A DNA stretch of 60,734 nt from an uncultured Planctomycetales bacterium (lineage in GTDB: Bacteria; Omnitrophota; Gorgyraeia; Zapsychrales; JAHFFX01): the NCBI GenBank assembly GCA_964464475.1, contig CAYXGG010000004.1:70940-131673 (forward strand), given 5' to 3'. The position numbers and the translations under genes are program-made. Below the pieces are notes generated by a model. That model was not told the origin of the DNA and did not search any database. It worked only from the letters and a program-made list of their open reading frames with translations. The first letter of the stretch is position 1, and each line of letters opens with the position of its first letter. Below are positions 1-48,781 of this stretch, piece after piece.

Positions 1-346
1 GCAGCAGACGAGAATGAATTTGGGAAGGGGAATGTCGGTGAAAATCCAAAAAGGAGAGTCTCAGGATATGGTCCAAAGTCCTTTCTCGTAAATCTCGAAC
101 CACCTTCTCTCCGACTCCATAAACGAGATAACCGCGAACAAAATTGGCCACGGCCTTAACAAGCAAACTGCCCAACATCAATCCCAGAAGCAATCCCCCG
201 TAACTGACCGAACCGGAAATGAGCCCGTCCAGGACAAACTTCAGACCCCAAGGAAAAATCAGTGTGCACCCATTAGCCACAAGCGTCAACAACAGAATAC
301 ACGCAATCACCTTTGCGTAGGGACGCAAAATAAAAATTATTTTCAT
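1..346 (-). CDS. ABC exporter, fused TMD-NBD type (N-terminal part only; gene continues past the left window edge)
   Basis: Absent from the ORF track because it is truncated. ATG at 344..346 overlaps the TGA of the rSAM gene (ATGA). My translation is MKIIFILRPYAKVIACILLLTLVANGCTLIFPWGLKFVLDGLISGSVSYGGLLLGLMLGSLLVKAVANFVRGYLVYGVGEKVVRDLRERTLDHILRLSFLDFHRHSPSQIHSRLL. This looks like the first TM helices and the (F.D....G.l.SRL) region of a type-I ABC exporter. There is no C39 peptidase domain at the N-terminus. Confidence 0.6.
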   Translation of the reverse strand, partial: MKIIFILRPYAKVIACILLLTLVANGCTLIFPWGLKFVLDGLISGSVSYGGLLLGLMLGSLLVKAVANFVRGYLVYGVGEKVVRDLRERTLDHILRLSFLDFHRHSPSQIHSRLL

Positions 347-1734
347 GTTTTTGTCAAAGCTGGCTCTCGAAGTGCATGGGACTTTGTCTGCGACACCATT
401 CGATGATAGTCACGTTTGATATATTCTGGAGCCATCATATTCAAGTACGGCTTTTTACAGGATGCGACTTTGAAATTTCCATGCCCCCCCACGAAAGACA
501 TCAGGCGACACCCACCGCTACACATCGGTAAATAAGTGCAATCAACCGGGCATTGCTTCCAAACATCCAAATCTCTAAATTCTTTACCCTTTTCGTTATA
601 TTCTTCATGATAAACATCTCCCACGGCAAACTCAGGATGACCGAGCAACGAGTTGCATTTATACAGTTTACCTTCCTGGTCAATAGTGACCCCACCATTT
701 TCTCTAGTTAACGGACAAATCGATGTGGACATACCGCTTTTAGGATTGGCAACACCCTTAGCATCCAATAACGCGTTTAACTTCTTTACGGCCTGCGCGT
801 AAATCGCGTCATCCAAGTTGCACGAACATTCCGATCCACGGACGGCGGTAGGATTTCCCTTAGGCCCTAGCGTGGGAATGATGGGAGAAAATACAAATCG
901 ACCCAATTTATGCAAAACGCCTAAATTTTCCAGGTGATTGATCAATTTTTCTATGGGGTCAATATTGCCTTTCTCAAATCCGATCGAAAGACCGATAGGG
1001 ATTAAATCGGCACAGTCTACGATGTTCTTCATGATCCGCTCAAAAGTCCCCCCACCCCCCCTTAACGGCCTATTACGGTCGTGATCTTCGCCGACGCCAT
1101 CCAAACTGATGCGAACATGGCGTAGATTATATTGCTTGTATTTATTCACAATTTCCGGCGTCAAGAGGTACCCATTCGTTTGCAGGGCCATATCAAATTT
1201 CTTACCGTTGGCTTCGCACCAGGCCAACATTTGACTTGAAACATTTTCAATCGCGGCCTGATTTAGCAAGGGTTCTCCGCCATAATAATTAATGTGCAAA
1301 GCCTCGTAACCCAGGCGCTCCATCTTGCGCTGTAAATAACGGATCACCTGCTCTTGAGTCTCAAAACTCAATTTCACATTGGTTCGCGAACTTTCTTCAA
1401 AACAATAGGTGCATTTAAAATTACACGAATAGGTCGTCAGCAGCGTGACCGTTAAATAGGCAGGATTATAACTATACTTGATTTGTTGTAGATGGCTGCG
1501 TAACTTTTCGCGTTCTTCCACGTCATCTCGCACCAGCAAACCGATTCGGTGCAAATGACGCACATCATCTCTTTGCAAAATATCTTCTTGATACGGCGCG
1601 ATCGTCAGCTGATTCAGGATCTCTCTAAGCGCGTCATCAATTTTGACCAAAGCCTGAGTGCGGGTGCTGTATAACAGGTGTTCGCCAGATTGGGGATAGT
1701 CGGGGACCAGAATCGTATGGCAGGACAGACGCAT
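343..1734 (-). CDS. radical SAM / SPASM-domain peptide maturase
   Basis: CNFKCTYC is a CX3CX2C radical-SAM motif lying after an N-terminal extension of about 100 aa (possibly an RRE-like leader-binding domain). The C-terminal Cys pattern is typical of SPASM: CPLTRENGGVTIDQEGKLYKC (CX14GX4C), CPVDCTYLPMCSGGC, then a lone C in ASCKK. GGAGG lies 5 nt 5' of ATG 1734. Confidence 0.9.
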   Translation of the reverse strand: MRLSCHTILVPDYPQSGEHLLYSTRTQALVKIDDALREILNQLTIAPYQEDILQRDDVRHLHRIGLLVRDDVEEREKLRSHLQQIKYSYNPAYLTVTLLTTYSCNFKCTYCFEESSRTNVKLSFETQEQVIRYLQRKMERLGYEALHINYYGGEPLLNQAAIENVSSQMLAWCEANGKKFDMALQTNGYLLTPEIVNKYKQYNLRHVRISLDGVGEDHDRNRPLRGGGGTFERIMKNIVDCADLIPIGLSIGFEKGNIDPIEKLINHLENLGVLHKLGRFVFSPIIPTLGPKGNPTAVRGSECSCNLDDAIYAQAVKKLNALLDAKGVANPKSGMSTSICPLTRENGGVTIDQEGKLYKCNSLLGHPEFAVGDVYHEEYNEKGKEFRDLDVWKQCPVDCTYLPMCSGGCRLMSFVGGHGNFKVASCKKPYLNMMAPEYIKRDYHRMVSQTKSHALREPALTKT

Positions 1735-1755
1735 AGCTTCCTCCTTTGGGAGTGA

Positions 1756-1791
1756 ATCGGCGCGATCCGGAAAGCTCCGGATCGCGCCGAT
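1756..1791 (-). promoter_or_regulatory. intercistronic stem-loop between the precursor ORF and the maturase (16-bp perfect stem, 4-nt loop)
   Basis: atcggcgcgatccgga (1756-1771) pairs perfectly with tccggatcgcgccgat (1776-1791), with loop aagc. No U-tract follows on the minus strand. The maturase SD starts about 8 nt after the stem. Confidence 0.5.
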
Positions 1792-1806
1792 ATTAACCGC
1801 GGTTAA

Positions 1807-1920
1807 TTATTCTTCGTCGCTAACTTCACGCAAGAATGAATTCATTGTGCCCGGTGGCCAGCAGCAACCCAACGCGGCGAGGTCCTTTAACTTCTCTGAT
1901 CCTTGATTGATCACTTCCAT
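1807..1920 (-). CDS. candidate RiPP precursor peptide, 37 aa (unannotated, below the ORF-track length cutoff)
   Basis: Hand translation gives MEVINQGSEKLKDLAALGCCWPPGTMNSFLREVSDEE followed by TAA. GGAGG lies 5 nt 5' of the ATG (gcgaaaGGAGGtagtgATG). The ORF lies 72 nt 5' of the rSAM/SPASM gene on the same strand. Confidence 0.55.
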   Translation of the reverse strand: MEVINQGSEKLKDLAALGCCWPPGTMNSFLREVSDEE

Positions 1921-1944
1921 CACTACCTCCTTTCGCTATGCGGT

Positions 1945-1968
1945 GAAAACAGCTTCCTTATGAAGCTG
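1945..1968 (-). terminator. weak hairpin plus T-run between the SBP gene and the precursor ORF
   Basis: On the minus strand: cagcttc-ataag-gaagctg followed by TTTTC. This is a 7-bp stem. Only about 20 nt separate it from the precursor SD. Confidence 0.3.
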
Positions 1969-1985
1969 ACTTTCAACGCCCAAAA

Positions 1986-3707
1986 TCACTCAGCCCAATA
2001 CCAATCCTTCATCTCATAAGTTGGCATAAAACGACTGAAATAGGACTCAACACCTTCCAAATTGTCTCGGATAGCCGAATAGCTAATGGGATAAAAAAGA
2101 AAACAAACTGGTTGCTCGACGATAATCACCTGGTGAATTTGTTGAAACAATCTATTACGGGTCTCATCATTTTTTTCCAATCTGACTTTAGTCAGGAGCG
2201 CATCTAGCTGAGAGTTGCGATACTCCCATAATCGACCCACCTGACCGGAGGAGGATGACCAATCATCCGCCACTTCAAAATCCCGCAAATCGTAACCCGC
2301 AAAAAAACGCAACCACGCTTGGACCCCATGTTCCCGCAAAAAAGAAGCGGTCAATTGTTCATCATTATTGTATCGAACTAAATTCAACTTAATTCCCACC
2401 TGAGAGAGTTGTTGCCGCATCTGTGCTGCAATATCCAGCATGACCGGGCTACGCTCATCAACCAGGAGTTTAAGCGTTAAACTCTTACCGGATTTTTCTA
2501 CCGTCCCATCGTTGTCATGGTCTATCCAACCCCTATGATTTAGGAGAATGTTGGACTTAGTAGGATTATAAATTCGATCAATTCTTGATGATTCCCAACC
2601 ATCAAAACGAGTTCTAAACGGCCCCTCGCTCACCACCCCACTGATATCGGTCAAACTCGAGAGCAATTCCCCTCGGTTAATCGCATGAGCGATGGCCTGC
2701 CGGATCTCTATTTGACTAAGCAAAGGATCTCCCAAGTTGTAAACCATCGCGCAATAAAACCCTAAGTCCACCGAGTAACTATTAAAATGTTCATCTTTTC
2801 TAATTAGTTCAAAATCAGCTTGGCGAATGAATTGCACCAGATCGACTTCATTGCGCATCAGTGCGGAAAATAATTGAGCGCTGTCCTGATACACGGCAAC
2901 AATAACTTGATCCAAATAGGGCCGACCTTCAAAGTAATCATCAAAAGCAGCCAGCTTAATCCGTCCGTCCGCCTTGTCCCAAGACACAAAACGAAAAGGT
3001 CCGGTCCCAATCGGAAATTCATTAAAACTCGCTTCTGCCAAATCCTTCCCCATCAACAAATGCCGCGGCATAATTCCATAGGCAATCTTATTAATAAATA
3101 ACGGATTAGGTTCAGACAGAACTACTTCAAATGTATATTCATCAACTACTCTTAATTCTTTGACCAAAGAGAAATTAGGCAAAAAGGGAGAATTATTTTG
3201 GGGGTTCAATAATTGTTCGAAGGTGAATTTAACATCTTCGGCCGTGCATTCCTCGCCATCATGAAACATCACTCCTTGTCGTAAAAGAAAACGATAGATC
3301 AATCCATCGGCGGAGACGGTCCATTCTCGGGCTAGATCCGGCTCCCATTCTCCCCGACTATTAATACGCACTAGTCGATTAAAAATCAAATCCAGTAAAT
3401 TCATAGAAATACTGTGCGTTGTTAACACCGGATTAATAATAGTGGGTTGATGATATACGCCCCAGACCAGATCGCCACCGTAGCGGTTGGCCTTGGCAAC
3501 AACGTGAGGGCTACGGCTTTCCCCATCTGATTCGGCAAGCAAAGGTTCACAAGTAAGTCCTCCTGAAACCACCGCTAACAATGTCAAACCAAATGCGAAC
3601 TTGATTATCTTTATCAATTGAACATGGGCGACTTTTCTTAAAGGACTCAAGGGAGGACAACACAATATGGCAGAAAAGGCCCTTAAAGAATTGAAAGTAT
3701 GGCACAT
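1986..3707 (-). CDS. ABC-type periplasmic solute-binding protein, family 5 (OppA/DppA/NikA-like), orphan
   Basis: About 570 aa with the length and sequence character of family-5 SBPs (GGDLVWG....INP; RLV..N..GE..PDLA..W..S.DG..Y.F.LR.GV.FHDG). The start is uncertain: TTG 3710, ATG 3707, or an internal TTG near 3617 that would give a signal peptide MIKIIKFAFGLTLLAVVSG. No cognate permease or ATPase genes are adjacent. Confidence 0.8.
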   Translation of the reverse strand: MCHTFNSLRAFSAILCCPPLSPLRKVAHVQLIKIIKFAFGLTLLAVVSGGLTCEPLLAESDGESRSPHVVAKANRYGGDLVWGVYHQPTIINPVLTTHSISMNLLDLIFNRLVRINSRGEWEPDLAREWTVSADGLIYRFLLRQGVMFHDGEECTAEDVKFTFEQLLNPQNNSPFLPNFSLVKELRVVDEYTFEVVLSEPNPLFINKIAYGIMPRHLLMGKDLAEASFNEFPIGTGPFRFVSWDKADGRIKLAAFDDYFEGRPYLDQVIVAVYQDSAQLFSALMRNEVDLVQFIRQADFELIRKDEHFNSYSVDLGFYCAMVYNLGDPLLSQIEIRQAIAHAINRGELLSSLTDISGVVSEGPFRTRFDGWESSRIDRIYNPTKSNILLNHRGWIDHDNDGTVEKSGKSLTLKLLVDERSPVMLDIAAQMRQQLSQVGIKLNLVRYNNDEQLTASFLREHGVQAWLRFFAGYDLRDFEVADDWSSSSGQVGRLWEYRNSQLDALLTKVRLEKNDETRNRLFQQIHQVIIVEQPVCFLFYPISYSAIRDNLEGVESYFSRFMPTYEMKDWYWAE

Positions 3708-3856
3708 CAAAATAAACCTAGTTGGGCTTAAGTTAATTTAAACATAATTGATTGCAAGTAAATGGCTATTCTCCGCCATTCACTAACTTTATTCACTGTT
3801 GTCTTTAAATTGACAAACGAACCAAGCCGGCCTGCCTCAATAAGCAAGATTACACG

Positions 3857-4019
3857 CTTTTTCCCTTCTAATGTTAATTAAGGAAGGCGGGATAACGACC
3901 TTTTCTTCTTGGAGAAAAGGCAGTACCTGCCTCGCCGGTCCGCCTCGGCTCGCCATCAGCGAGACGGGCAGGCGGGTTGACTTCCTCTTAAGCATTGGAA
4001 TAGAAAAGGTCAATAAATT
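3857..4019 (+). repeat. modular intergenic repeat, copy A (hairpin module + 52-nt GC core 3925..3976 + AT-rich R module ending aaaaggtcaataaatt)
   Basis: The reverse complement of the core is identical (52/52) to 49270..49321 and 54753..54804. The flanks align with copy E (28032..28146). Confidence 0.85.
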
Positions 4020-4046
4020 AAACTAAAAACAAAAACCTATCCCAAA

Positions 4047-5984
4047 TTAAAATTCGAGGCTAAAGCCCCCTTCAAAATACCGACGGGGTAGAGGAAAATC
4101 AATATTGGACCAGTACTTGCTATTGGTGAGATTATGAATGCTGAAGAAAATTTTTCCATCCACATTGGCCCAAAAATCAACAAAGGCTTGTGATAGCTTA
4201 AAATCCCAAATGGGCTTGCGATCATTGGCCCTTAACGACGGCTCCGAACTCCAGCGGTTATATTGACCCAAAAGCTCGGCACTAAAACCCGTCACGCTAT
4301 GAAAATGCGCAGCTAACGAATATTTCTGCCGGGCGATTCCTTGATCACGCACGGAGCGACCTGTTTGCCGATTTTCCACATCATTAAATGCGCCGCTGGC
4401 CGAAAAAGACAGGGTCTCGGACCAATCGTAATCGAACGTCAACTCCGCTCCCTGCCGACGAAACTTACTAAAGTTTCTTTGTACATAGTAATTGGTAATA
4501 GGATCCTGGACCAACGCGATCGCGTCCCGGACATCTGACAAATAAAAATTAAGGTCCATGTTAAAATCATCCCCAAAAACGGTACTTCCCCCTAACTCGT
4601 ATACAGTGGCGCGCTCTGCTTCTAAATCGGGATTGGCCCCCACTTGAAATCCCGGATCAAAGTTATAAATCCACATCAAAGGTGGCGCGTTAAACACCCG
4701 GGAAATTTTTCCTCTGACCGAAGTCTCCGGCAGCTGGGCAAAACGATAGACCGACGCGAAACTAGGACTGGTTTGACTTCCGAATTGATCATTGCGGTCA
4801 TAACGAATGCCTGGGACAAATTCCCAGCCATTAACTTCTAACGAATAGTTCGCGAAAGGCGCCTGGGCGCTAATACCTTTGGCTTCAGACAAATAGCGAT
4901 TGGACTTGATCGTATGCCAATCAAAATCAGCGCCCATTACCAAAGCTCCAAAATCCGCAAAATCCTTATGACCATTAAGACTGATCCCTCGATAAAAATT
5001 ATTACTGATGGTCTCGAATTGCGACGCATTCGTTGAGACTGACTTTGTGTCGGTCGTAATATCTTGATGGTTAAACTTTAAAGCCACACTAAGAACATCG
5101 TCCCCATCCTCTCTGGAAAGGATCACTTGCCCGTAGCGCGCGTAATAAGGTTGAGTGGAATAATTGCTTGCCGTCTTTAACCCGTACTGAGCGAACGCGT
5201 CGTGATATCCGAACGTGCTTTGGATAATTCCCAAATCGCCTATAGGCAGGGACAATTTAGTCAACACACTCTTTTTTTCAGCCTCGCCAAATCGCTGAGG
5301 TCCATCGGTTTTATAATAACTTCCACTGGCGAAATAGCCCAATTCCTTAACTGATCCGGCTAGCGACAAACTCTCTTGAAACGTACCGAATTCCGCGAAC
5401 GAGCTGTTAAATTGACCGCTGACACGTTCCCCACCAGCGCTTTTGGTAATCACATTGACCACCCCGCCTAAACTAGAACCCCACGCGCTGGAAGCGCCGC
5501 CCTTAATGATCTCCACGCGTTCAATCATTTCCACAGGTATGGCGGAAGGATTAGCCTGCCCCGACAGTTGGGTATTGAAAGGAATGCCGTCAATCAACAG
5601 CAAAACTTGACGCGCATTGGAACCATTGAGAGATAACGCGGTCGATTGGCCGAATTGTCCATTCAATTGCACATCGATCGCGGGAGAATACGACAATACT
5701 TCGGTCAAATCCCGTGCCGGCAGTCGCTCAATGTCTTCGGCGGTAATTATCTCAACTTGTTCTGGACTATGTCGGGATTTACTTGGAGCACGGCGGGCCG
5801 TCACCACGACCGTATTTAATTCGTACAAAAATTTTGGCTTAATTTCAGCACTCTTAGAGGAAGGGGAAAAAGATGGTGAAGAACTGCTTAGGACAGCACT
5901 GTTTGCGTGTACTTGCCTACCCTGCAGAAAAACTTGTAAGACCATAATGACCCAAAAAATTCTTAATGCCTGACGAAACCTCAT
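4047..5984 (-). CDS. TonB-dependent outer-membrane receptor
   Basis: Signal peptide, then a plug region (VVVTARR...IERLPARDLTEVL...LNG...LIDGIP) and GGASSAWGSSLGGVVNVITK. It has a long beta-barrel and a C-terminal aromatic residue (..GGFSLEF). Confidence 0.9.
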   Translation of the reverse strand: MRFRQALRIFWVIMVLQVFLQGRQVHANSAVLSSSSPSFSPSSKSAEIKPKFLYELNTVVVTARRAPSKSRHSPEQVEIITAEDIERLPARDLTEVLSYSPAIDVQLNGQFGQSTALSLNGSNARQVLLLIDGIPFNTQLSGQANPSAIPVEMIERVEIIKGGASSAWGSSLGGVVNVITKSAGGERVSGQFNSSFAEFGTFQESLSLAGSVKELGYFASGSYYKTDGPQRFGEAEKKSVLTKLSLPIGDLGIIQSTFGYHDAFAQYGLKTASNYSTQPYYARYGQVILSREDGDDVLSVALKFNHQDITTDTKSVSTNASQFETISNNFYRGISLNGHKDFADFGALVMGADFDWHTIKSNRYLSEAKGISAQAPFANYSLEVNGWEFVPGIRYDRNDQFGSQTSPSFASVYRFAQLPETSVRGKISRVFNAPPLMWIYNFDPGFQVGANPDLEAERATVYELGGSTVFGDDFNMDLNFYLSDVRDAIALVQDPITNYYVQRNFSKFRRQGAELTFDYDWSETLSFSASGAFNDVENRQTGRSVRDQGIARQKYSLAAHFHSVTGFSAELLGQYNRWSSEPSLRANDRKPIWDFKLSQAFVDFWANVDGKIFFSIHNLTNSKYWSNIDFPLPRRYFEGGFSLEF

Positions 5985-6040
5985 AGCCAGCTAGATTTTT
6001 TCAAAGTCGATCATGATTTTATTAAAAATTGATAAATTAA

Positions 6041-6120
6041 TACCAAAATGAATGATTAAAGTGAACAAAGTAAATTTATTGTATACAATCGTAAATGATT
6101 GTAAACAAATGATTTATTAT
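6041..6120. promoter_or_regulatory. AT-rich region with repeated AATGAT(T) motifs 5' of the TonB receptor gene (possible Fur-type boxes)
   Basis: aaaatgaatgattaaa at 6045-6060, gtaaatgattgtaaacaaatgatttattat at 6091-6120. There is only a partial resemblance to GATAATGATAATCATTATC. Confidence 0.2.
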
Positions 6121-6124
6121 TTCA

Positions 6125-9121
6125 TTACCTTTTTAAGAATCCATTCTTCCGCCTTTTTTGCCACCAATATAGCAACATGAAAAACAGTAACCAGAAAGAA
6201 GGCTCCGGGACATTATATTCTTCTTCAAACTCCAATCCGGCTGAGGTTTTTATTCGTTGACGCTCTTTTTCTTTAAGAATTTTCCATTGCGAAGACCGTT
6301 CCAAAACAATAAAAGAGGTCGAGGGAATTAATACCGTAGCACTTTTACTGTCCGCAACCAATTGAGCAAGCTGCCGATCAATAGCGACCGGATTTAATAA
6401 AGCCATTTCATTACTCTGCCGCAACAATATTCCCCGATTATAAATTGAATCTTTAGAAACCTTAACGACTTCACCCATGGGAATAAATTTTTGAATATTT
6501 GAATCAAAAACCTCCCAGAGCGCCTCACTTCCGTCCTCCACAAAAGCCACTTGCCCCGCTGCCCCAGAGGCATCCACCTTTGATAGCAGGCCATTCTTTC
6601 TTAACACGATCCACGAACGGGCCATGCTCTTGGTCGCACTATTTGGATTTCTGCGTAGTTGCCCATCTCTTCCCAACACATAATAATTCTCGGCCTCAGG
6701 GTAAAAACCTCGTGACCAAATAGCTTTTTCGGATCTTAGAACTTTATCTTCCGCAGATGTAATAAATACAAAAATTGGCTCCGATAATACGCTACTGACA
6801 TTTTCCTTGTCCCACGCCATCTTGGCTTCAAAGACCAGCTGGCGAATGACCCGATCCAAATCCACCCCTCCCCGAGAATAAATTTTTCTTTGTGCGGCCG
6901 ACCATTGCTCCGCCAGTCTTTCAACCGGAATCATCGTTTCACTTATTGAAACGGTGTCTAAATTCGCTAACGTGACTCGACAATAACGTACGTCGGGAAA
7001 ATTCTGAACAGCGGCCTGCATCAACGCCAAATATTTCTTCTCATCCCAGGCCTTTGTGCCTAATGAATGATCCAAAATAAAATGAATATACGGAACTCGA
7101 TTGACTTGAGGTAGACGTTGGATCATCGGCGAGGGTAAAACAAGTGCGCTGGATTTTCCATCTGACAAAGATATCGGCTTTAACTGTTGAGTCTCACCAG
7201 TGGCTTCATTTAAAACGATCTCTTGCTCTTGCAATCTAACTTTAGGAAATATCCCCTTAGGATAAAGAAAATCAATCTGCACCACCCGCTCTTCCCCCGC
7301 TGCGAAAGGGAAGACATTTAAACTTAATTCACCAGGGGCGACGTATTTCAGTAACCCGGGATCTCGTCTAGTCCGGTCACGAATCATGTGATAGACCCAT
7401 TCCGCGGCCCGCCGCTCGAAGATTTGCCCCGGAACTATTTCCTCTCCAATCTTCAAACTAAAACCTGTAATGATCACTTCCTCAGGGACTATCAATGAAC
7501 CTTCAAACTCCGAGTTGATGACCCCGCTATTATTTTTAAGCACTAAGTTGAGTTGACTGCGATGCCAGGGACCTTCGACGCTTTCCCTCACGGACGTGCT
7601 AAGCACTGACACTTTTCTTTGTTCTTCTGTGGGTGGAGAATTAACACCTCTTTCACTCCACCACCGCCCCCGCATATCTTTATTCAATCCCCAAAAATGA
7701 TTCTGTTTTAACGGAGGAAGGTCTTCTCCGATAAAGAATTTGAATAAGTAATCAATTTTCTTATCAGGCAAAACCATGTTCTCAAAAACGATATGATTAT
7801 AAATTCCCGAAAGATAAGGTAACTGTAAACCGTATTTGAATTCTTTAAGATTGATGAGCGTCGCGCGTAACGCTTGCGGATTGCCTTGAAAGGAACGGTC
7901 TTTGCCGGCGAAATCAGGTGCATAAGCATAACGCAGGGCCTCTTTCAAATTAACCTTGGCATAAAACGCTTCTGCCACAAAATAAGTCGGAAATACCAGG
8001 ATTCCGGCTAATCCCAAAACAACCGTCCAGCGCAAACCGACCTGTCTTTGGGTTGCAAGAGCGTCCTGCCACCATCGTTGCGCGTGGATCATAAAAAGAA
8101 ATACCGGCACCAGAAAAAGAATGCCCGCACCTAATGCGAACATGGCCGGCAAAGCCAACGGTAAAAATGGCAAAAAAACTAAAAAGAAATAAAAGCTAAA
8201 CGGGAAAAAGATGCTGCGCGCCAAAAAAATCCACATACTATTTGAGAAACTTTTGTCCGTAGAAACGATCAACAATAATCCGTTAATAAGTGCTAAAACA
8301 TAAACCCACGGTGATTGAAAATCTGCCGGGAACGGGATTTGGCGATTCAGCATTAACCCACCGATGGGGCCGGCAATGCCTATAATCGCGTACAATAACG
8401 TTTGCCCCCAGCGGGCCCGAGCTTGCAGCGAATGATAAATCAAAACCAGCAAGCGGATCAACGCCATACAACTTAACAGAGTCAAGAGAACAAAGAATCC
8501 CGTGGCCACCAACGCCGGCCAACGAAAATTCCAGCGAGATATGAGGAAAAGCACGTAATAGGCTGCCGGTGCTAGCACCGCGATGCTGATGGTTCTGAAA
8601 TATTCGTCTTTGCGCGACCACCCCCAAGAAAAACAAGCTAATCGAACACCGCAATAGAAAATAGCGGGCATCATAAAAGTGAATTGCTGTAACGTCCAAT
8701 CTCCGGAATCTAAAATCCAGGGCTCAATGCTGCTGGGCAAAATACGAAATTGATGCGTCGCCCAAAACCACAAGTAGCCCACGCACCCCAACAACATCGC
8801 CGCGCACCATTTCCAAAACTGGCTACCTTGACCCCGATGTGCCTTCCCCCACGCAACAAAAGCTAAACCTAACAAAAACACTTCCCAACTCAAACTCATA
8901 AGAATCAACTGCCGAGCAGAAAACGAAAATAAATCAAAATAATTAACGTTACCTAACAAGTCCTTCGTGGCCGTCTCATCCCAAATGATCCCGTAGGCCC
9001 GCCCATTAATGAGGAGTAGGACCAATTGCGGCAACAGGCAGGTCCACCACCAACACGCAGGATGGTTGAAGATCGTCGGTAATAATGAATTAGGACTTTT
9101 CAAAGAAGATTGTTGTTCCAT
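6125..9121 (-). CDS. polytopic membrane protein with VIT-like domain and C-terminal PEP-CTERM sorting signal (exosortase substrate)
   Basis: The N-terminal ~400 aa are very hydrophobic with many TM helices. The central region resembles a VIT domain (ITGFSLKIGEEIVPGQIFERRAAEWVY...DPGLLKY..PGELSLNVFPFAAGEERVVQIDFLYP). The C-terminus NVPEPSFWLLFFMLLYWWQKRRKNGFLKR reads as PEP, then a TM helix, then a basic cluster. The ORF track starts at TTG 9157. The first ATG is 9121, which overlaps the exosortase stop by 32 nt. Confidence 0.75.
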   Translation of the reverse strand: MEQQSSLKSPNSLLPTIFNHPACWWWTCLLPQLVLLLINGRAYGIIWDETATKDLLGNVNYFDLFSFSARQLILMSLSWEVFLLGLAFVAWGKAHRGQGSQFWKWCAAMLLGCVGYLWFWATHQFRILPSSIEPWILDSGDWTLQQFTFMMPAIFYCGVRLACFSWGWSRKDEYFRTISIAVLAPAAYYVLFLISRWNFRWPALVATGFFVLLTLLSCMALIRLLVLIYHSLQARARWGQTLLYAIIGIAGPIGGLMLNRQIPFPADFQSPWVYVLALINGLLLIVSTDKSFSNSMWIFLARSIFFPFSFYFFLVFLPFLPLALPAMFALGAGILFLVPVFLFMIHAQRWWQDALATQRQVGLRWTVVLGLAGILVFPTYFVAEAFYAKVNLKEALRYAYAPDFAGKDRSFQGNPQALRATLINLKEFKYGLQLPYLSGIYNHIVFENMVLPDKKIDYLFKFFIGEDLPPLKQNHFWGLNKDMRGRWWSERGVNSPPTEEQRKVSVLSTSVRESVEGPWHRSQLNLVLKNNSGVINSEFEGSLIVPEEVIITGFSLKIGEEIVPGQIFERRAAEWVYHMIRDRTRRDPGLLKYVAPGELSLNVFPFAAGEERVVQIDFLYPKGIFPKVRLQEQEIVLNEATGETQQLKPISLSDGKSSALVLPSPMIQRLPQVNRVPYIHFILDHSLGTKAWDEKKYLALMQAAVQNFPDVRYCRVTLANLDTVSISETMIPVERLAEQWSAAQRKIYSRGGVDLDRVIRQLVFEAKMAWDKENVSSVLSEPIFVFITSAEDKVLRSEKAIWSRGFYPEAENYYVLGRDGQLRRNPNSATKSMARSWIVLRKNGLLSKVDASGAAGQVAFVEDGSEALWEVFDSNIQKFIPMGEVVKVSKDSIYNRGILLRQSNEMALLNPVAIDRQLAQLVADSKSATVLIPSTSFIVLERSSQWKILKEKERQRIKTSAGLEFEEEYNVPEPSFWLLFFMLLYWWQKRRKNGFLKR

Positions 9122-9641
9122 GGGGACGAAACCTTTCCAAAATGATTGAATAGCCAATAAGCAAACTTAAAAAAACACTGATTCCCACGCCTTGATGCAG
9201 AGCGCCCATATACAGGCTTGGCAAAACCGGCTTAAGCCAACTCTCGACATAAAATAAAGAAATGATCCTTAAACTATTAGCTAAAATTGTCAGCAAGTAA
9301 CCCATGCCTAATCCTAACAACAGGCGTCGCGGCATAAACCAAGAAAGTCGATCATAATCATAAAAAAGCCAGACACCCACTGTCAGGGCGAAGAAGTTTA
9401 TCCCTATACAGGCCGGCACAATCTGAATCAACCCCGCCCCCAAAGGTAGGACATAATAATTTTCCGCATTCATTCGTGGATCCACGCCAAAGAAAAAACC
9501 AACCAGGTGCGCGGTTGGACAAGCAAAAAAAGAATAGAAGATAGGTTCGAATTTGGAAAGAAAATGGGCGAGTCCGGCGCTCACCGCCAAAGCCACGACC
9601 GCCGGGCTCGCCCTTCCCACCTTTAATAAAACGGCCTTCAT
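9090..9641 (-). CDS. minimal exosortase-family transpeptidase (183 aa)
   Basis: Hydrophobic multi-TM protein carrying the exosortase/archaeosortase Cys-Arg-His signature in order: IQIVPACIGINFF, LTILANSLRIISLF, GALHQGVGISVF. Its ATG overlaps the upstream stop (ATGA). Confidence 0.7.
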   Translation of the reverse strand: MKAVLLKVGRASPAVVALAVSAGLAHFLSKFEPIFYSFFACPTAHLVGFFFGVDPRMNAENYYVLPLGAGLIQIVPACIGINFFALTVGVWLFYDYDRLSWFMPRRLLLGLGMGYLLTILANSLRIISLFYVESWLKPVLPSLYMGALHQGVGISVFLSLLIGYSIILERFRPHGTTIFFEKS

Positions 9642-11263: not shown

Positions 11264-12138
11264 CGATGTAACTCCAAGAATATCTCTTCCAGATTTAAAT
11301 CTTCGACCGAGACCTGAGCCGACCATCGCGCTTGCAAGTCGGTAATCAACGCTTCATTAAAATTCCTAACAGTTAATAACGCTTGGGCCCCCTGTATCTC
11401 CGAATGCATGATTCCCGGAATGGGCAACAAAGCGGATAGATCACGGTCACTATGTCCGCGCAACCTCTTAACCGTGTCCTTTAAATCATCCGTCTCTCCA
11501 TAAAAAGACACGGTTCCCCTCTTAAGCAGCACCACCCGATCAGCGACCCTTTCCAAATCCGAAGTGATATGCGTTGAAAAAACAATTGTGCAAGCACGCG
11601 TATTGATAATGTTTAACAAAGTCTTTAAAAAATTCCTACGGGACAACGGATCCAAACTTGCCACCGGCTCATCTAAGATCAACAATTCTGGTTCATGTCC
11701 CAAGGCCAATAAAATCATGACCATTTGCAATTGACCTTCCGAAAGCTCACCCATCTTTTGATCCCTAGACAATTCCCACTCATTTAATAAACGGTCTACT
11801 AACGAATGGTTCCAACGCTGATAAAACGACGCGGTGTAATTCACTAGTTCGATGACCGAAAGCCAAGAATAAACACGTTCGGACTGTGGCACGTAACCGA
11901 TTCGCTCTTTAGCTGCCGCGGAGAAAACCCAAGGGTTCTCTCCTAATGTCATGACCGTTCCTGAACTGGCTTTCATCAGCCCCAACAAGCATTTCATCAG
12001 AGTCGTCTTACCAGCCCCATTTTTCCCCAACAACCCCACCACTGTTCCTCTGGGGATTTGAAAGGATATCTCATTAAGTATTGATCGGTTCCCATAACTC
12101 TTGCTGAGTTGCGTACATTCAATCATTGAATCATTCAT
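11260..12138 (-). CDS. ABC transporter ATP-binding protein (YtrB-like)
   Basis: Walker A GKNGAGKTT, signature LSEGQLQ, Walker B LLILDEP. It overlaps the GntR gene stop by 8 nt. Confidence 0.9.
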   Translation of the reverse strand: MNDSMIECTQLSKSYGNRSILNEISFQIPRGTVVGLLGKNGAGKTTLMKCLLGLMKASSGTVMTLGENPWVFSAAAKERIGYVPQSERVYSWLSVIELVNYTASFYQRWNHSLVDRLLNEWELSRDQKMGELSEGQLQMVMILLALGHEPELLILDEPVASLDPLSRRNFLKTLLNIINTRACTIVFSTHITSDLERVADRVVLLKRGTVSFYGETDDLKDTVKRLRGHSDRDLSALLPIPGIMHSEIQGAQALLTVRNFNEALITDLQARWSAQVSVEDLNLEEIFLELHR

Positions 12139-43120: not shown

Positions 43121-46100
43121 CTATTCTCGCCAATCGCCACCCAACGCTTTAATAAGTTCAACAGTCGAAATAAGACTGCGGTTTAAAATGCGAACGGAAT
43201 CAAGTTCGGACTGCAGACGCGATCTTTCCGTATCCACGACATCCAGAAAATTAACCAGACCCTGGCGATAACGGGCATTGGAAATATCCGCCGATTGCCG
43301 CGCGGCGTCCATCACCTTTTGTTGAACCAGCCACTGCTCGCGCCCCAAACGGATGCGGGCCAGAGCGTTTTCTACTTCCGAAAAAGCCACTAAAATACGC
43401 TGTCGATATTGGGCCGTCGTTACTTCGTGTTCAGCGCGTGCGGCCTCCAGATTAGCGCGATTAGCGCCACCGTTAAAAACCGGAATAGTAATATTCGGCC
43501 CCAATGACCAGAATCGACTTTCCCAATTAGCGACATCGCGAAGTTCAACACTTTCTAATCCGGCGGCTCCGGTCAGTGTGATTTTCGGAAAGAAAGCCGC
43601 CTGAGCAGCCCCGATACGCGCGTTAGCTGCCGCCATCAGACGCTCGCTTTCAGCGATATCCGGACGTCGTTCCAGCAAAAACGCCGGTAGTCCCGGCGGA
43701 ATCACCGGAGGCACAATATCCAATGGCTTTACCTCAAGCGTAAAATCCGATGCTGGTTTTCCTAATAAAACCGCCAAAGCGTTTTCCGCTTCCGCTCGCT
43801 GACGGGCCACATCAATCTTGTCGGCTTCGGCTTTCGCCAATTCAGTTTGCACGCGCGAAACATCCAATTCACTGACAACCCCCGATTGATAACGATCCTC
43901 AACCAACGACAGCGCATTGCGACGCAAATCCAAAGCCTTATCAAAAATCTCCATCTCGGTCTCTAATTCACGCAAAATAAAATAATTCCTGGCTACGTCC
44001 GCGGTCACGGACAAAAGCACCGTTTGAAAAGCCGCCTCACTGGCCGATACTTCCGAGTTAGCAGCGGCAAACAAATGCTCCACTCTTCCCCAAACATCCA
44101 GCTCATAACTTAAATCAAAAGGCATTGAATATTTATCATGCGGATTATCCACGAAAAATCCCGAGGAAACATTTTGAGAGGTGTGTTCTCGAGTATACGA
44201 AGGTTTAGCGTCGACATGCGGAAAAAAATCCGCGCGGCTTAATCGCGCCAGGGCTCGAGATTTATTAAGGGAAGCAAACGCCACCTTCAAGTTTTGATTA
44301 TGCTCAATCGCCTGTTGCTGCAATTCATTTAATAACGGATCACGAAAAACCTTCCACCACTGCCCCCGCGGCACATCGTCGCGAGGCTCAGCCTGCTTCC
44401 AGTTGGGGTCCTCAACTTTCCAACCCGCGGGCATGGGCGCTTCCGGACGCTGATAGGGAACGCCCCTCGAGCAACCTGACGACAAAACCATCAGGACTAT
44501 CAGTACCGCCGCCTTCACTGGTTCGGCAATCAAAGGGCTAACCGGAACTTTGGGTTGATTTTTCTTACCGCTTAACAACACGTATACGACCGGAATAACG
44601 ACCAAGGTCAAAAATGTACTGGTGATCATACCCCCTACGGCCGCGACCCCCAAAGGCCGACGGCTTTCCGCCCCGGCGCCAAATCCAATCGCGATCGGCA
44701 AAATACCGGCAATCGTCGCTGTCGCCGTCATTAAAATGGGACGCAACCGAATCAATCCTGACGCCAACATCGCTTCCCGGGCGTCTTTGCCCTTAGCCAT
44801 TTGCTGATTGGCAAAATCAACCAGCAAAATACCATTTTTAGTAACCAGCCCAATGAGCAGAATCATTCCGATTTGACTAAACAAATTCAAACCCATCGCT
44901 GGAACGCCAAAATAATTCATCAGCCACAACGAAAAGAACGCGCCAAACGCCGCCAGCGGCACCGTCAGCATAACCGTCAACGGATGGACCAAACTTTCAA
45001 ATTGCGCGGCCAATACCATATAAATAACCAGCATAGACAACACCAAAACGAATAACGTTTCCTGACCAGATTCCAACAAGTCCTGAGCCTCACCGGTCCA
45101 TTCATACCGAAAATCTGCCGGCAATTCCTTCTTTAATAATTCCTCAACGTTCTTGACCGCGGTCCCGAGAGGAACCCCGATCGGCGTGCCTTCAATCGTC
45201 GCCGAACGGAAACGGTTAAAATGATTAATCGCGCTCGGCCCCGCACCAGTTTCATAACTGACGACATTGCTTAACTGAATCAGCTGACCTTGGTCATTGC
45301 GCACATATAGGCGATCCAAATCCGCCGGCGTTAAACGAGATTCCCGTCGCAGCTGCACAATCACGTCATATTCCTTACCCTGTAAATTCAGTTTGCTTAA
45401 ATCCAACCCACCAAACAAAATCTGCAACGTGTGCGAAATAGATTCGATGGAAACACCCAACGCCGCCGCGCGATTACGATCAATATAGACACGTAATTCG
45501 GGTTTATTTAATTCGAACGTAGAACGAACATTTGCGAGATACCCCGAAGTTCGTAACTTTCCACTGAACTCCGCGGCAAAACGGCTCAGCTCTTCCAAAT
45601 TCTGACTTTGCAAAACCAGTTGAAACGGCTGAGAAAAACCACCACCGATCGCTTTGGGAACAATGGGGATCACAATCGCCCCTTCGATGTTCATAAAAAA
45701 CTGCCCGGCCAGACCCGTAGGCCCGCCAATTATGTCACGAATATGACGATCTCGTTCCTCCTTAAGACGTATAAATGATAGCCCCTCCGCCGAGCGTCCG
45801 GGACCGCCACGCGAAAGCGCCACCGCAGAGAAATAACCCTCAACTTCCGGGACAGAAGCAATGATGCCTTCTGCTTTCTTAACCATGCGATCAGTGTATT
45901 CACTAGTGGAACCTTCCGGGGCGATAACAATGCAAAACAAACGTCCCTTGTCTTCATCGGGGAGAAACTCCCGACTCAATTTAGAGTAAAAAAATACTGA
46001 AGACGCGCAGATGACCAACGCGACAACAACAATAACCCAGGGAAACTTAAGCGCCCAGCGTAACACTTTTTCATACAGATTCGTCGTGGCGGTAAACGCG

Positions 46101-47617: not shown

Positions 47618-48726
47618 GACTTCCCTTCACCATTCCCCATGGTCGCTTCCTCCGGAGGTGAAACCGGAGCCGGTTCTCCTTCATAACGCACGGACACTTT
47701 CATCCCCGGGCCTAATTTCTGATGGCCTTCCACAATAACGATTTCTCCTTCCGAAAGGCCTTCCAAAATCTCCACCGTCCCAGCCATACGGATTCCCACT
47801 TTGACCAACTTATTGACCGTCGAATCGTCGGCATTGACCACATAAACCTGCACGTCGTCTCCTTTAGGAATCAACGCCGCTTCCGGAACCACAATGACAT
47901 CCTCTTTTTTATTCACGATTAATTTCAAATTGGCAAACATGCCATGGCGCAGCTTGCCTTCAGGATTAGCAACTTTGGCTTTAACGAGCGCGGTGCGAGA
48001 CAACTCATCAATTTTAGGATCAATAAAATAAACGTCGCCACCGAACTTCTCTCCGGGGTAAGCGGCCACTTCCATTTCAACAGTTTGCCCCACCGATACG
48101 GTATTCAAATATCGCTCCGGCACTCGAAAATTAGCTTTCATGGGATCCTGACTAACCAGAAAACTGATGCTGGTTCCTTTGGTAATAAATTGCCCCACAC
48201 TGACTTTACGTTCTCCCATGACCCCATCAAAGGGCGCGACAATCGTTGAGTCTTTCAACAAAGCTTTGTTCAGCTCTACGTCGGCGCGATTCACTTCCAA
48301 TGACGCGACGGCCTGATCATATTCCTGGCGGGAAACCGCACCACTCGCAATCAGGGGCTGATAACGCTCAGTCGTCGTCTCAGCAAAACGCAGGTTAGCT
48401 TGCGCCTGTTCTAAAGCGGCCTTTAATTTTCGCTGATCAATCAATAGAATCTCGGTTCCCTTCTTGACTTTCTGACCCTCGCTGAAATCAATCTTTTCAA
48501 CCGCGCCGTCAATCTCACTTTTGATTTCCACCATCTCGTTGGCTTCCAGAGTGCCCACCAAAGATATTTTTTCTGCGATAGGCTGTTTGATCGCTTTAAA
48601 GCCAACCACAGGAATTACCATTTGCGGAGGCGGCGGTGCAGCATCACTTTTTTGTTCACAACCGGAAACGCAAAAAAGAACCCAAGAAAACAGAATCAAA
48701 TTTAAACCTAGAACTTGAAAACGCAT
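47614..48726 (-). CDS. RND membrane-fusion (periplasmic adaptor) lipoprotein
   Basis: Signal with lipobox (LFCVSGC) from ATG 48726, with GAGGA 8 nt upstream. It has biotinyl-lipoyl-like and coiled-coil hairpin regions. ATGA overlap with the RND start. Confidence 0.9.
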   Translation of the reverse strand: MRFQVLGLNLILFSWVLFCVSGCEQKSDAAPPPPQMVIPVVGFKAIKQPIAEKISLVGTLEANEMVEIKSEIDGAVEKIDFSEGQKVKKGTEILLIDQRKLKAALEQAQANLRFAETTTERYQPLIASGAVSRQEYDQAVASLEVNRADVELNKALLKDSTIVAPFDGVMGERKVSVGQFITKGTSISFLVSQDPMKANFRVPERYLNTVSVGQTVEMEVAAYPGEKFGGDVYFIDPKIDELSRTALVKAKVANPEGKLRHGMFANLKLIVNKKEDVIVVPEAALIPKGDDVQVYVVNADDSTVNKLVKVGIRMAGTVEILEGLSEGEIVIVEGHQKLGPGMKVSVRYEGEPAPVSPPEEATMGNGEGKS

Positions 48727-48781
48727 AAGCTTATCCTCAGAGGGGTCAATTAGATGAACTACCAACTATTCAAACACCACG

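Follow-up and report, generated by a model that had tools for sequence, protein, structure and literature searches.

The closest described counterpart of the locus analysed here is the geopeptide system of NCBIfam (TIGR04280 with TIGR04229), which was defined computationally and is uncharacterised; no paper in the literature mentions the family, and no experimental work on any member exists. Methanobactin loci (MbnA, MbnB/C, MbnM, MbnT, MbnE) likewise combine a RiPP precursor by a TonB-dependent transporter (TBDT) and an orphan family 5 solute-binding protein (SBP) with an exporter and dedicated regulators, and a preliminary description had proposed that our locus, too, works by exporting the peptide and recovering it in a TonB-dependent way. 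The SCIFF/ranthipeptide and sactipeptide maturases (CteB, PapB, SkfB) share with the enzyme described below an RRE, radical SAM (rSAM) and SPASM architecture, and there, as here, Cys is the sole conserved residue of the precursor core. Gram-positive pheromone cassettes (agrBDCA, comAB/comCDE) hold a precursor, its maturation and export, a histidine kinase and a response regulator in one operon. In PfeA with PfeS/PfeR and in Bacteroides SusC with hybrid regulators, a ligand admitted by a TBDT is sensed in the periplasm by a kinase and the transporter operon is induced; the Bacteroides hybrid two-component regulators have an AraC-type output domain, as do the regulators of our related loci.

The locus opens a 60,734-nucleotide stretch of Omnitrophota DNA (the window) and consists of five co-directional minus-strand genes, for a TBDT, an SBP_bac_5 protein, a 37-codon ORF, an rSAM/SPASM enzyme and the start of an ABC exporter, all lying where the preliminary description had placed them (Table 1). 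Comparison of related loci recovered the same gene order in more than 12 independent cases, so the arrangement is more than chance; and, because the flanking genes vary from locus to locus, the module behaves as a unit. The window carries a genuine operon for a small enzyme-modified peptide, beside an outer-membrane uptake channel and a periplasmic binder.

Table 1. Positions and identification of the features of the operon.
Feature	Position	Strand	Basis
TonB-dependent outer-membrane transporter (TBDT)	4047..5984	-	Pfam Plug + TonB_dep_Rec_b-barrel
Orphan periplasmic family 5 SBP (OppA/NikA class)	1986..3710	-	PF00496, 241 bits
Shine-Dalgarno GAAAGGAGGT of precursor gene	1925..1934	-	identical in 8/8 close loci
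Precursor peptide gene, 37 aa	1807..1920	-	homologous ORF, same position, >20 loci
Perfect 16-bp stem, 4-nt loop	1756..1791	-	inverted repeat + fold energy
rSAM/SPASM peptide maturase, 463 aa	343..1734	-	NCBIfam best match TIGR04280
MsbA-like ABC half-transporter, N-terminal 115 residues	1..346	-	PF00664; gene cut by window start

The maturase has the rSAM motif C104-x3-C108-x2-C111 (CX3CX2C) and seven SPASM cysteines (C340, C360, C395, C399, C405, C409, C426), all invariant or nearly so among 22 homologues. Its N-terminal extension, noted before together with these two motifs, shows in an AF2 model (pLDDT 88) three strands followed by three helices over residues ~1-90, the RRE pattern. Profile classification placed the enzyme nearest to TIGR04280 ('geopeptide radical SAM maturase', 259.9 bits), within the peptide-modifying, thioether-type rSAM/SPASM enzymes. 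Since the TIGR04280 cutoff is 400 bits and true members score 535-570, we assign it to a sister clade of that family, which occurs mainly in Omnitrophota. The next matches were CefB and TIGR04463 (182 bits), followed by Clo7bot, PapB (140 bits, cutoff 340) and SCIFF (99 bits, cutoff 425), all Cys-targeting and thioether-type; similarity to QhpD was weak (105.7 bits), and all scores for QHNDH and PQQ families in the NCBIfam search were far under cutoffs. The best PDB match by both fold and sequence was the thioether-forming CteB (5WHY/5WGG), over the full length including the RRE. The class of the enzyme thus suggests thioether chemistry. In profiles and PDB matches the enzyme did not group with anSME or cofactor-biosynthesis enzymes.

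The small ORF runs from an ATG at 1920 to a stop at 1809-1807, is preceded by GGAGG at 1930-1926 and is separated from the maturase ATG (1734) by exactly 72 nt. It encodes MEVINQGSEKLKDLAALG-CC-WPPGTMNSFLREVSDEE, in which a leader with an EVI/EII hydrophobic strand and an invariant Gly7 is followed by a core starting at the invariant Cys19-Cys20. Its position, leader spacing and CC motif are kept in Omnitrophota, Planctomycetota, Auribacterota, Nitrospirota, Desulfobacterota and Gammaproteobacteria, so that orthologous maturases do have a conserved adjacent small ORF. CCWPPG is encoded at the same position in eleven close loci (the window and ten others), and the eight close loci compared as DNA have the ribosome-binding site directly upstream of the precursor start in common and differ by synonymous changes in core codons. 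On these comparisons of sequence the ORF is a real precursor gene, in agreement with the preliminary description.

The invariant residues of the core are the cysteines only. A thioether-forming enzyme would be expected to react at just these residues, which disfavours free thiols as metal ligands. Of the two roles offered earlier for the Cys pair, that of crosslink donor is thus consistent with the enzyme class, and that of metal ligand is argued against. The hairpin of Table 1 stands between the precursor stop and the ribosome-binding site of the maturase; its fold energy is -41.9 kcal/mol (z = -6.3), and about 19 of 20 related loci have an analogous hairpin, though not one of related sequence. 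It is likely to be a transcript attenuator or stabiliser that raises the ratio of precursor to enzyme.

The ATG of the ABC exporter gene (346-344) overlaps the TGA of the maturase (345-343) in the ATGA reported earlier, an arrangement of translational coupling. PF00664 was detected in the 115 visible residues, the membrane domain coming first, with no C39 peptidase domain in the half-transporter. Full-length orthologues have 569-585 aa, with ABC_membrane and ABC_tran domains, and match MsbA_rel best in NCBIfam (449 bits, under cutoff). However, precursor, maturase and exporter do not form a fixed core as had been supposed: the exporter is optional in the window clade, being absent from 4 of about 17 loci (L004, L084, L086, L169), and none of the four bona fide geopeptide loci examined has it. 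The module loci encode neither an outer-membrane export component nor a leader peptidase.

The TBDT carries a signal peptide and a sequence resembling a TonB box (LNTVVVTA), is short and BtuB-like (nearest solved structure BtuB) and has no N-terminal signalling (STN) domain; orthologues with 39-52% identity occupy the same position in related loci, and a search upstream of their genes gave no common operator motif. For the SBP, the TTG at 3710 is no more than the earliest start that the frame allows: alignments with orthologues begin at about residue 44-75, a signal-peptide-like stretch covers about residues 30-58, and orthologue N-termini resemble signal peptides. The true start probably lies about 90 nt downstream, and the gap between the TBDT and SBP genes would therefore be at least 336 nt. 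The nearest solved structures are 8EFZ, NikZ (4OET) and AppA (1XOC). The orphan status given to the SBP in the preliminary description was borne out, as no partner permease genes adjoin the module in any locus examined, which fits a sensing role; the one BPD_transp_1 gene encountered, some 5 kb downstream in L171, is part of an unrelated SBP_bac_1 importer. A TBDT and an SBP are co-conserved with the maturase across phyla. The nearest relatives of the SBP include nickel and metallophore binders, an observation that counts against that sensing role.

In relatives the operon continues beyond the point at which the window begins. Each of the 14 distinct window-clade loci whose sequence reaches far enough downstream goes on to a dCache histidine kinase, with an AraC-type response regulator usually next, and L002, L005, L081-86, L167, L169, L172 and L173 show the full order TBDT-SBP5-precursor-rSAM-(ABC)-dCache kinase-RR(AraC)-RR. 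Genes within the module of L172 have stop/start overlaps; L168 has rSAM-ABC-kinase-RR without TBDT, SBP or precursor. Because in these orthologous loci the kinase gene comes immediately after that for the ABC exporter or the rSAM enzyme, a kinase gene most probably lies past the point where the window starts, and a regulator gene may follow it on the same contig. This kinase and regulator pair is the conserved part that the preliminary description did not include.

The bona fide TIGR04280 loci examined (L009, L012, L170, L171) contain a TBDT directly upstream of a CC precursor and the rSAM gene, a hairpin preceding the maturase gene and, nearby, an orphan SBP with a histidine kinase. TIGR04280 and TIGR04229 are the best-scoring families for the window enzyme and peptide, the latter weakly (16.3 bits). 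The precursors of both clades have a short leader that contains Gly and a hydrophobic strand (II/VV), then a set distance to CC, often followed by W/G-P (CCWGP in L171, CCWPPG in the window). In contrast to the family 5 protein of the window, the SBP of these loci is of PF04392. Directly coupled to it is a HAMP/sCache kinase unrelated to that of the window clade, where the kinase is of dCache type with an AraC-type regulator; L170 and L171 have it in hybrid form, and in L009 and L012 a regulator of NtrC or NarL type goes with it. The window clade, hosted mainly in Omnitrophota, also often adds the ABC exporter. The geopeptide loci thus have the same design built with a non-homologous SBP and kinase, and this replacement suggests that what is selected is the function 'TBDT + periplasmic binder + kinase' and not particular genes.

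The other systems differ more. Scores of the maturase for SCIFF and PapB are far under cutoffs, the window precursor has two adjacent Cys and not a six-Cys or CX3D pattern, and the diderm hosts and the TBDT, SBP and two-component context are foreign to SCIFF and sactipeptide systems. Unlike methanobactin loci, the module uses rSAM/SPASM chemistry, as had been anticipated, with no MbnB/MbnC (MNIO/DUF692)-like gene; its TBDT lacks a signalling domain, there is no FecI/FecR-type sigma pair, and relatives have two-component regulation. The order precursor-rSAM-ABC-kinase-regulator of relatives, with its putative signalling, recalls agrBDCA and comAB/comCDE; the window itself shows neither kinase nor regulator, the proteins are not homologous, and in diderm hosts a TBDT and a periplasmic binder are interposed. 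In comparison with PfeA and SusC systems, the presumed ligand would be a self-made RiPP, a separate orphan SBP belongs to the module, and the proteins are not orthologous.

We tentatively favour a self-contained geopeptide-type RiPP production-and-recognition operon, whose thioether peptide would be re-admitted by the TBDT and sensed via the SBP and kinase. The RRE would bind the 37-aa precursor by its leader, and the maturase would link one or both adjacent cysteines to nearby backbone or side-chain carbons, the thioether bridges yielding a small, rigid peptide. Where its gene is present, the coupled MsbA-like exporter would move the peptide out of the cytoplasm; the dedicated TBDT, required for re-entry because the peptide would be too large for porins, would bring it back into the periplasm for capture by the SBP. 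The dCache kinase and AraC-type regulator could read the loaded SBP, or the peptide itself, and feed back on the operon, giving an autoinducing, TonB-gated peptide-sensing circuit. Counting against a signal, the nine identical tandem precursor genes of L171 suggest a product consumed stoichiometrically and not present in traces. The optional exporter, the missing outer-membrane export component and leader peptidase, the incomplete gene set of L168 and the lack of a common operator motif also speak against this reading.

The same tandem genes, together with the hairpin, would fit a peptide metallophore, released to bind a thiophilic metal that is scarce in sulfidic anoxic habitats (Ni, Co, Cu or Zn) and recovered via TBDT and SBP as methanobactin is via MbnT/MbnE, with the two-component system inducing the receptor by its substrate, like PfeS/PfeR for enterobactin. 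MbnE is likewise an orphan family 5 SBP, the best curated matches of the window SBP are nickel and staphylopine-type binders (Opp5A/NikA, CntA) and NikZ, the TBDT is of the BtuB/heme/siderophore receptor class, the adjacent Cys pair is invariant, and the hosts are anaerobes. We nevertheless consider a metallophore rather unlikely: the enzymes nearest to the maturase use up the Cys thiol in forming a thioether, one related subclade has only one Cys, set in an aromatic core (e.g. WCWWMIYK), the module in related loci has no recognisable metal-responsive regulator, riboswitch, reductase or inner-membrane importer, MbnB/MbnC-like genes are missing, and the flanks contain metal genes only here and there (ZnuA in L172, ZIP in L169, CutA1 in L168).

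The peptide might also be the output and not the ligand, the TBDT, SBP and kinase sensing and admitting an unrelated external compound and the regulator turning on an rSAM peptide such as an antimicrobial or a periplasmic or cytoplasmic effector. This seems to us distinctly improbable, since in both clades the TBDT gene stands right before the precursor gene and is co-transcribed with it, accompanied by no catabolic or other substrate-related gene, the peptide is the sole small molecule encoded by the module, and the SBP and kinase are swapped while the TBDT-precursor-rSAM core stays, which argues for a ligand tied to the core. Nonetheless, a TBDT with periplasmic sensing and AraC-type output is nutrient-sensing logic, as in Bacteroides polysaccharide-utilisation loci; any exporter is missing from most geopeptide-clade and four window-clade loci, and PF04392 SBP-kinase pairs are coupled to each other, not to the precursor. 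We give very little credence to a crosslinked peptide exported to the periplasm only, where it would pair stably with the SBP or be trimmed into a small cofactor derived from Cys and salvageable via the TBDT, by analogy with QhpC subunit export by QhpF (quinohemoprotein amine dehydrogenase) and PQQ salvage via PqqU: the conserved module includes neither a dehydrogenase subnit nor a peptidase nor any further tailoring enzyme, the QHNDH and PQQ scores are low as given above, and the exporter is optional. Consistent with such a product are the MsbA-like exporter without an outer-membrane partner, the QhpD match of the maturase, a weak similarity of the relatives' regulator to QhpR (62 bits), and the hairpin and multi-copy precursors, which resemble the pqqA arrangement.

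The window locus is a radical SAM (rSAM)/SPASM RiPP cluster, sister to the geopeptide systems. The five co-directional minus-strand genes that the preliminary description had placed in 1-5984 were borne out. The first of them encodes a TonB-dependent transporter (TBDT), of which BtuB is the closest relative of solved structure. For the family-5 solute-binding protein (SBP), whose true start probably lies downstream of the TTG at 3710, the curated neighbours in NCBIfam are Opp5A/NikA, Opp4A and CntA and the structural neighbours are 8EFZ, NikZ and AppA, the best of them including both nickel or metallophore binders and binders of oligopeptides. A stretch of 72 nt separates the end of the precursor ORF from the ATG of the maturase, and the visible 115 residues of the ABC exporter belong to a membrane domain without a peptidase domain. 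The TBDT and SBP genes stand further apart (336 nt or more) than in orthologous loci (77-196 nt), and the predicted structure of the GC-rich segment in this spacer (-42.7 kcal/mol, z = -2.6) is a modest gain over shuffles. An Rfam scan of window positions 1-6400 at E ≤ 1 returned no riboswitch or other RNA, a scan for consensus promoters and terminators gave no excess over shuffle expectation, and inspection of the 250-nt regions upstream of ten TBDT genes revealed no common operator motif.

Features of the module, of the rest of the window and of related loci
Sequence	Feature	Position	Strand	Description
Window	TBDT gene	4047-5984	-	Plug and barrel domains, signal peptide, TonB-box-like LNTVVVTA
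Window	GC-rich segment	3890-4000	-	Inside AT-rich TBDT-SBP spacer; long imperfect hairpin, then second stem
Window	Family-5 SBP gene	1986-3710	-	PF00496, 241 bits
Window	Precursor ORF, 37 codons	ATG 1920, stop 1809-1807	-	Preceded by ribosome-binding site GAAAGGAGGT
Window	Perfect 16-bp hairpin	1756-1791	-	Between precursor and maturase; z = -6.3
Window	rSAM/SPASM maturase gene	343-1734	-	C104-x3-C108-x2-C111 and full SPASM cysteine set
Window	ABC exporter gene, start		-	ATG overlaps maturase stop (ATGA); 115 residues inside window
Window	MSEP-CTERM sorting-domain protein gene	6125-9157	-	TIGR04286, 415 bits; VIT domain
Window	Exosortase-like gene	9090-9641	-	XrtK 47 bits against cutoff of 55; exosortase signature model passes
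Window	1498-aa ORF (RND permease and NodT-type outer-membrane factor)	43121-47617	-	Residues 1-1016 NF033617, 1045 bits; residues 1041-1494 TIGR01845, 400 bits
Window	RND adaptor-subunit gene, companion of the 1498-aa ORF	47614-48765	-	Precedes the 1498-aa ORF
L007	Third-subclade small ORF	9418-9489
L089	Third-subclade small ORF	11375-11455
L104	Third-subclade small ORF	11413-11487
L085	Second receptor and sensor set	2061-6137		TBDT, DUF4154, CHASE8 histidine kinase, response regulator; immediately upstream of module
L009	Geopeptide locus			TBDT, CC precursor, rSAM, PF04392 SBP (4-nt overlap with next gene), HAMP kinase, sigma-54-type regulator
L012	Geopeptide locus			Divergent PF04392 SBP, sCache kinase and NarL-type regulator, facing TBDT, CC precursor, rSAM
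L170, L171	Geopeptide loci			PF04392 SBP and hybrid kinase, divergent from TBDT, precursor(s), rSAM
L171	Precursor array	6310-7750		Nine identical tandem genes, 34-aa precursor MKEERIIIIDEGIDEVNPDGWQACCWGPLFAFRG, 166-nt period

Profile-HMM classification of the maturase, a check that the preliminary description had proposed, gave TIGR04280 ("geopeptide radical SAM maturase") as the best NCBIfam match (259.9 bits against a 400-bit cutoff), and not anSME or a cofactor enzyme. CefB and TIGR04463 (182 bits) came next, then FlmE/OhkG, Clo7bot and PapB. By these scores, the window maturase is the nearest outgroup of TIGR04280, below the membership cutoff; bona fide maturases score 570 bits (L012, Desulfobacteraceae) and 535 bits (L009, Nitrospiraceae). 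The window peptide matches the peptide model TIGR04229 ("geopeptide") weakly (16.3 bits, E = 0.006, cutoff 30), and the CC peptides beside bona fide TIGR04280 enzymes score 13.4 bits, 10.8 bits or not at all. TIGR04229 is narrower than the enzyme family, the window peptide being as similar to it as those bona fide neighbours. By these results, the window system forms a clade that is sister to the geopeptide family, and its precursor is homologous.

Several other identities were rejected, namely anSME (77 bits against 349), mycofactocin (MftC, 56 against 265), QHNDH (QhpD, 106 against 453), a PQQ maturase (far below cutoff) and darobactin/dynobactin (DynA, 99.5 bits against 450; the module is also without a membrane-fusion protein). 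Curated sactipeptide and ranthipeptide families likewise fell short of their cutoffs (SCIFF TIGR03974, 99/425; PapB NF047865, 140/340; CcpM, 107/500), and RumMC was absent among the best 25 matches. In an AF2 model (pLDDT 88) the maturase has an N-terminal RiPP recognition element (RRE) of three strands and three helices, an rSAM barrel and a SPASM domain, and the best PDB match of this model is the thioether-forming SCIFF maturase CteB (~460 aligned columns). The enzyme thus shares with sactipeptide and ranthipeptide maturases both the RRE and a SPASM domain with auxiliary-cluster cysteines, and its cysteine pattern is invariant across 22 homologues. Since no core residue other than Cys is invariant and the relatives act on Cys, the predicted product most likely carries one or two Cys-to-carbon thioether bridges. 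Three homologues of geopeptide maturases (P0203, P0214 and P0232, 695-725 aa) have an extra C-terminal domain of ~290 aa, which in P0203 and P0214 matches nothing in Pfam or NCBIfam; its YLDDFID motif resembles the DDxxD of prenyl-diphosphate enzymes, and the domain may provide some bona fide geopeptide maturases with a second tailoring activity.

Maturase homologues led to further loci, in which an ORF in the corresponding place codes for a related peptide. The motif CCWPPG is common to eleven close loci (the window, L001, L005, L081, L084, L085, L086, L167, L169, L172 and L173), and more distant precursors have CCFP.G (L002, L087, L088), CCIPG (L003), CCPPM (L004), CCKQG (L006) or CCGFD (L008). 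An alignment of 23 peptides shows near-invariance at Gly7 and the Cys pair alone, with a constant distance from Gly to Cys. The ribosome-binding site is identical in 8/8 close loci. The CCWPPG codons of the close loci vary synonymously (TGC/TGT, CCA/CCG/CCC, GGC/GGA/GGG/GGT), and selection therefore acts on the protein. By this comparison across loci, the small ORF is a genuine precursor gene. A hairpin between precursor and maturase is a classic RiPP layout, in which the precursor transcript exceeds that of the enzyme; about 19 of 20 related loci have a hairpin of unrelated sequence at the corresponding site, and T-runs come after some of these hairpins. A third subclade (L007, L089, L104) has its small ORF on the downstream side of the maturase gene; behind the same leader type, this ORF encodes an aromatic core with a single Cys (WCWWMIYK, YCFWFVTA, LCPFFVT). 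There the family-5 SBP gene follows the small ORF, and in L089 and L104 a kinase was detected after it.

Independent loci repeat the same order: TBDT, family-5 SBP, precursor, rSAM, in some an MsbA-like ABC exporter, a dCache/HAMP histidine kinase, an AraC-type response regulator and a single-domain response regulator. The named maturase homologues are from Candidatus Omnitrophota, and the rSAM-(ABC)-kinase part is kept in Planctomycetota L004 and Auribacterota L006. Flanking genes vary between loci; within L172, successive module genes overlap stop to start. The co-occurrence of a short CC ORF, a family-5 SBP and a TBDT with homologous maturases was seen across related loci, and there is support for the uptake arm that the earlier proposal attached to the RiPP. 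A core trio of precursor, maturase and ABC exporter, which the same description had assumed, did not hold: the exporter is optional (present in L002, L005, L081-83, L085, L167, L172 and L173; missing from L084, L086 and L169), and a conserved two-component system lay beyond that reader's view. The window starts inside the ABC gene, and a kinase and regulator beyond it are predicted from orthologous loci only; a kinase follows in 14/14 distinct window-clade loci having downstream sequence. An exception, L168, has rSAM-ABC-kinase-regulator without TBDT, SBP or precursor. Partner permease or ATPase genes were found beside the module in none of the related loci examined; the SBP is an orphan, and the idea that it serves a local Opp/Dpp importer was rejected. 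Scans of genome and metagenome collections with generic rSAM patterns yielded few further close loci among the matches listed. The additional gene set of L085 is a further TonB-receptor-plus-sensor arrangement in an Omnitrophota genome.

The geopeptide systems share with the window a short Cys-Cys precursor directly beside the rSAM/SPASM enzyme. At the four bona fide geopeptide loci (L009, L012, L170, L171), the SBP, kinase and regulator come from families unrelated to those of the window clade, and the TBDT-precursor-rSAM core persists. This replacement of the surrounding parts around a persisting core is strong evidence that outer-membrane gate, periplasmic binder and sensor kinase form a set with a functional tie to the peptide system. 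No exporter was found near any of the four. In L171, each precursor copy has its own ribosome-binding site and a terminator-like hairpin follows the array; the gene caller had fused the copies into overlapping 71-aa ORFs.

We tentatively favour, at somewhat short of even confidence, a reading in which the peptide is a signal. A thioether-crosslinked peptide would be made and re-admitted to the periplasm by the TBDT; there the orphan SBP would bind it, and the kinase and regulator would sense it and feed back on the operon. The components have precedents: LuxP/LuxQ and DppA/Tap use binding proteins as co-sensors, and ligands imported through TonB are sensed in the periplasm by PfeA with PfeS/R and by Bacteroides SusC with AraC-type hybrid regulators. 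In agr/com-type cassettes, precursor, processing or export function, kinase and regulator share one operon, and the orthologous loci hold precursor, maturation/export function, kinase and response regulator in one operon too. The broader proposition, that diderms of at least six phyla use a TonB-gated autoinduction circuit of a released rSAM-crosslinked pheromone, TBDT, orphan binder and kinase, is possible but rather doubtful; if true, agr/com-type peptide quorum sensing would have a Gram-negative equivalent assembled from unrelated components.

That the peptide is instead a metallophore strikes us as fairly unlikely. It is consistent with the nickel- and metallophore-like relatives of the SBP, the Cys pair, the anaerobic nature of the hosts and the array of nine precursor copies in L171, as well as with the precedent of methanobactin with its orphan MbnE, where a TBDT and a family-5 SBP also stand beside a precursor. 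This analogy, however, is one of layout only: the MbnB/MbnC (DUF692/MNIO) pair is found neither in the window locus nor in any related locus, and a methanobactin-type locus was rejected on this ground. The thioether type of the maturase, the single-Cys subclade and the lack of metal regulators, riboswitches or importers further argue against a metallophore. Two other readings are less likely than either a signal or a metallophore. The peptide could be the regulated output of a system whose TBDT, SBP and kinase sense something else, to which the frequent absence of the exporter would be suited; we regard this as improbable. A periplasmic partner or cofactor role, as in QHNDH or PQQ, seems very unlikely.

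Our literature search returned no paper on the geopeptide family or on a TBDT-SBP-rSAM RiPP-kinase architecture; the geopeptide enzymes are known solely through a computational NCBIfam model, and NCBI's annotation pipeline gives them their name. TonB transporter, orphan binding protein and two-component system are obligatorily linked to the peptide system, a previously undescribed trait that is apparently general to the family, which comprises >2000 protein clusters at E ≤ 1e-60, with about 600 further clusters in the window's sister clade at E ≤ 1e-20. Two deeply separated clades consistently pair a CC precursor and maturase with a TonB gate, an orphan binder and a kinase. This would give the family a concrete function, be it signalling by peptides across the outer membrane or metal acquisition in anaerobes by a new class of metallophore of the thiol/thioether peptide kind, and Geobacter and Desulfobacterota relatives offer tractable hosts in place of the uncultured Omnitrophota.

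Elsewhere, the genes of the window are ordinary diderm ones and include two RND efflux systems, one of them with the 1498-aa ORF, and a sulfate ABC importer. Directly upstream of the RiPP module, the MSEP-CTERM gene adjoins the exosortase-like gene, a pair that is not kept beside the module in related loci. The 1498-aa ORF is either an unusual permease-channel fusion or an assembly error in the form of a lost stop codon or a frameshift. Of the 53 ORFs of 120 aa or more in the whole window, about 47 are minus-strand, and the GC skew stays uniformly negative over all 60 kb.
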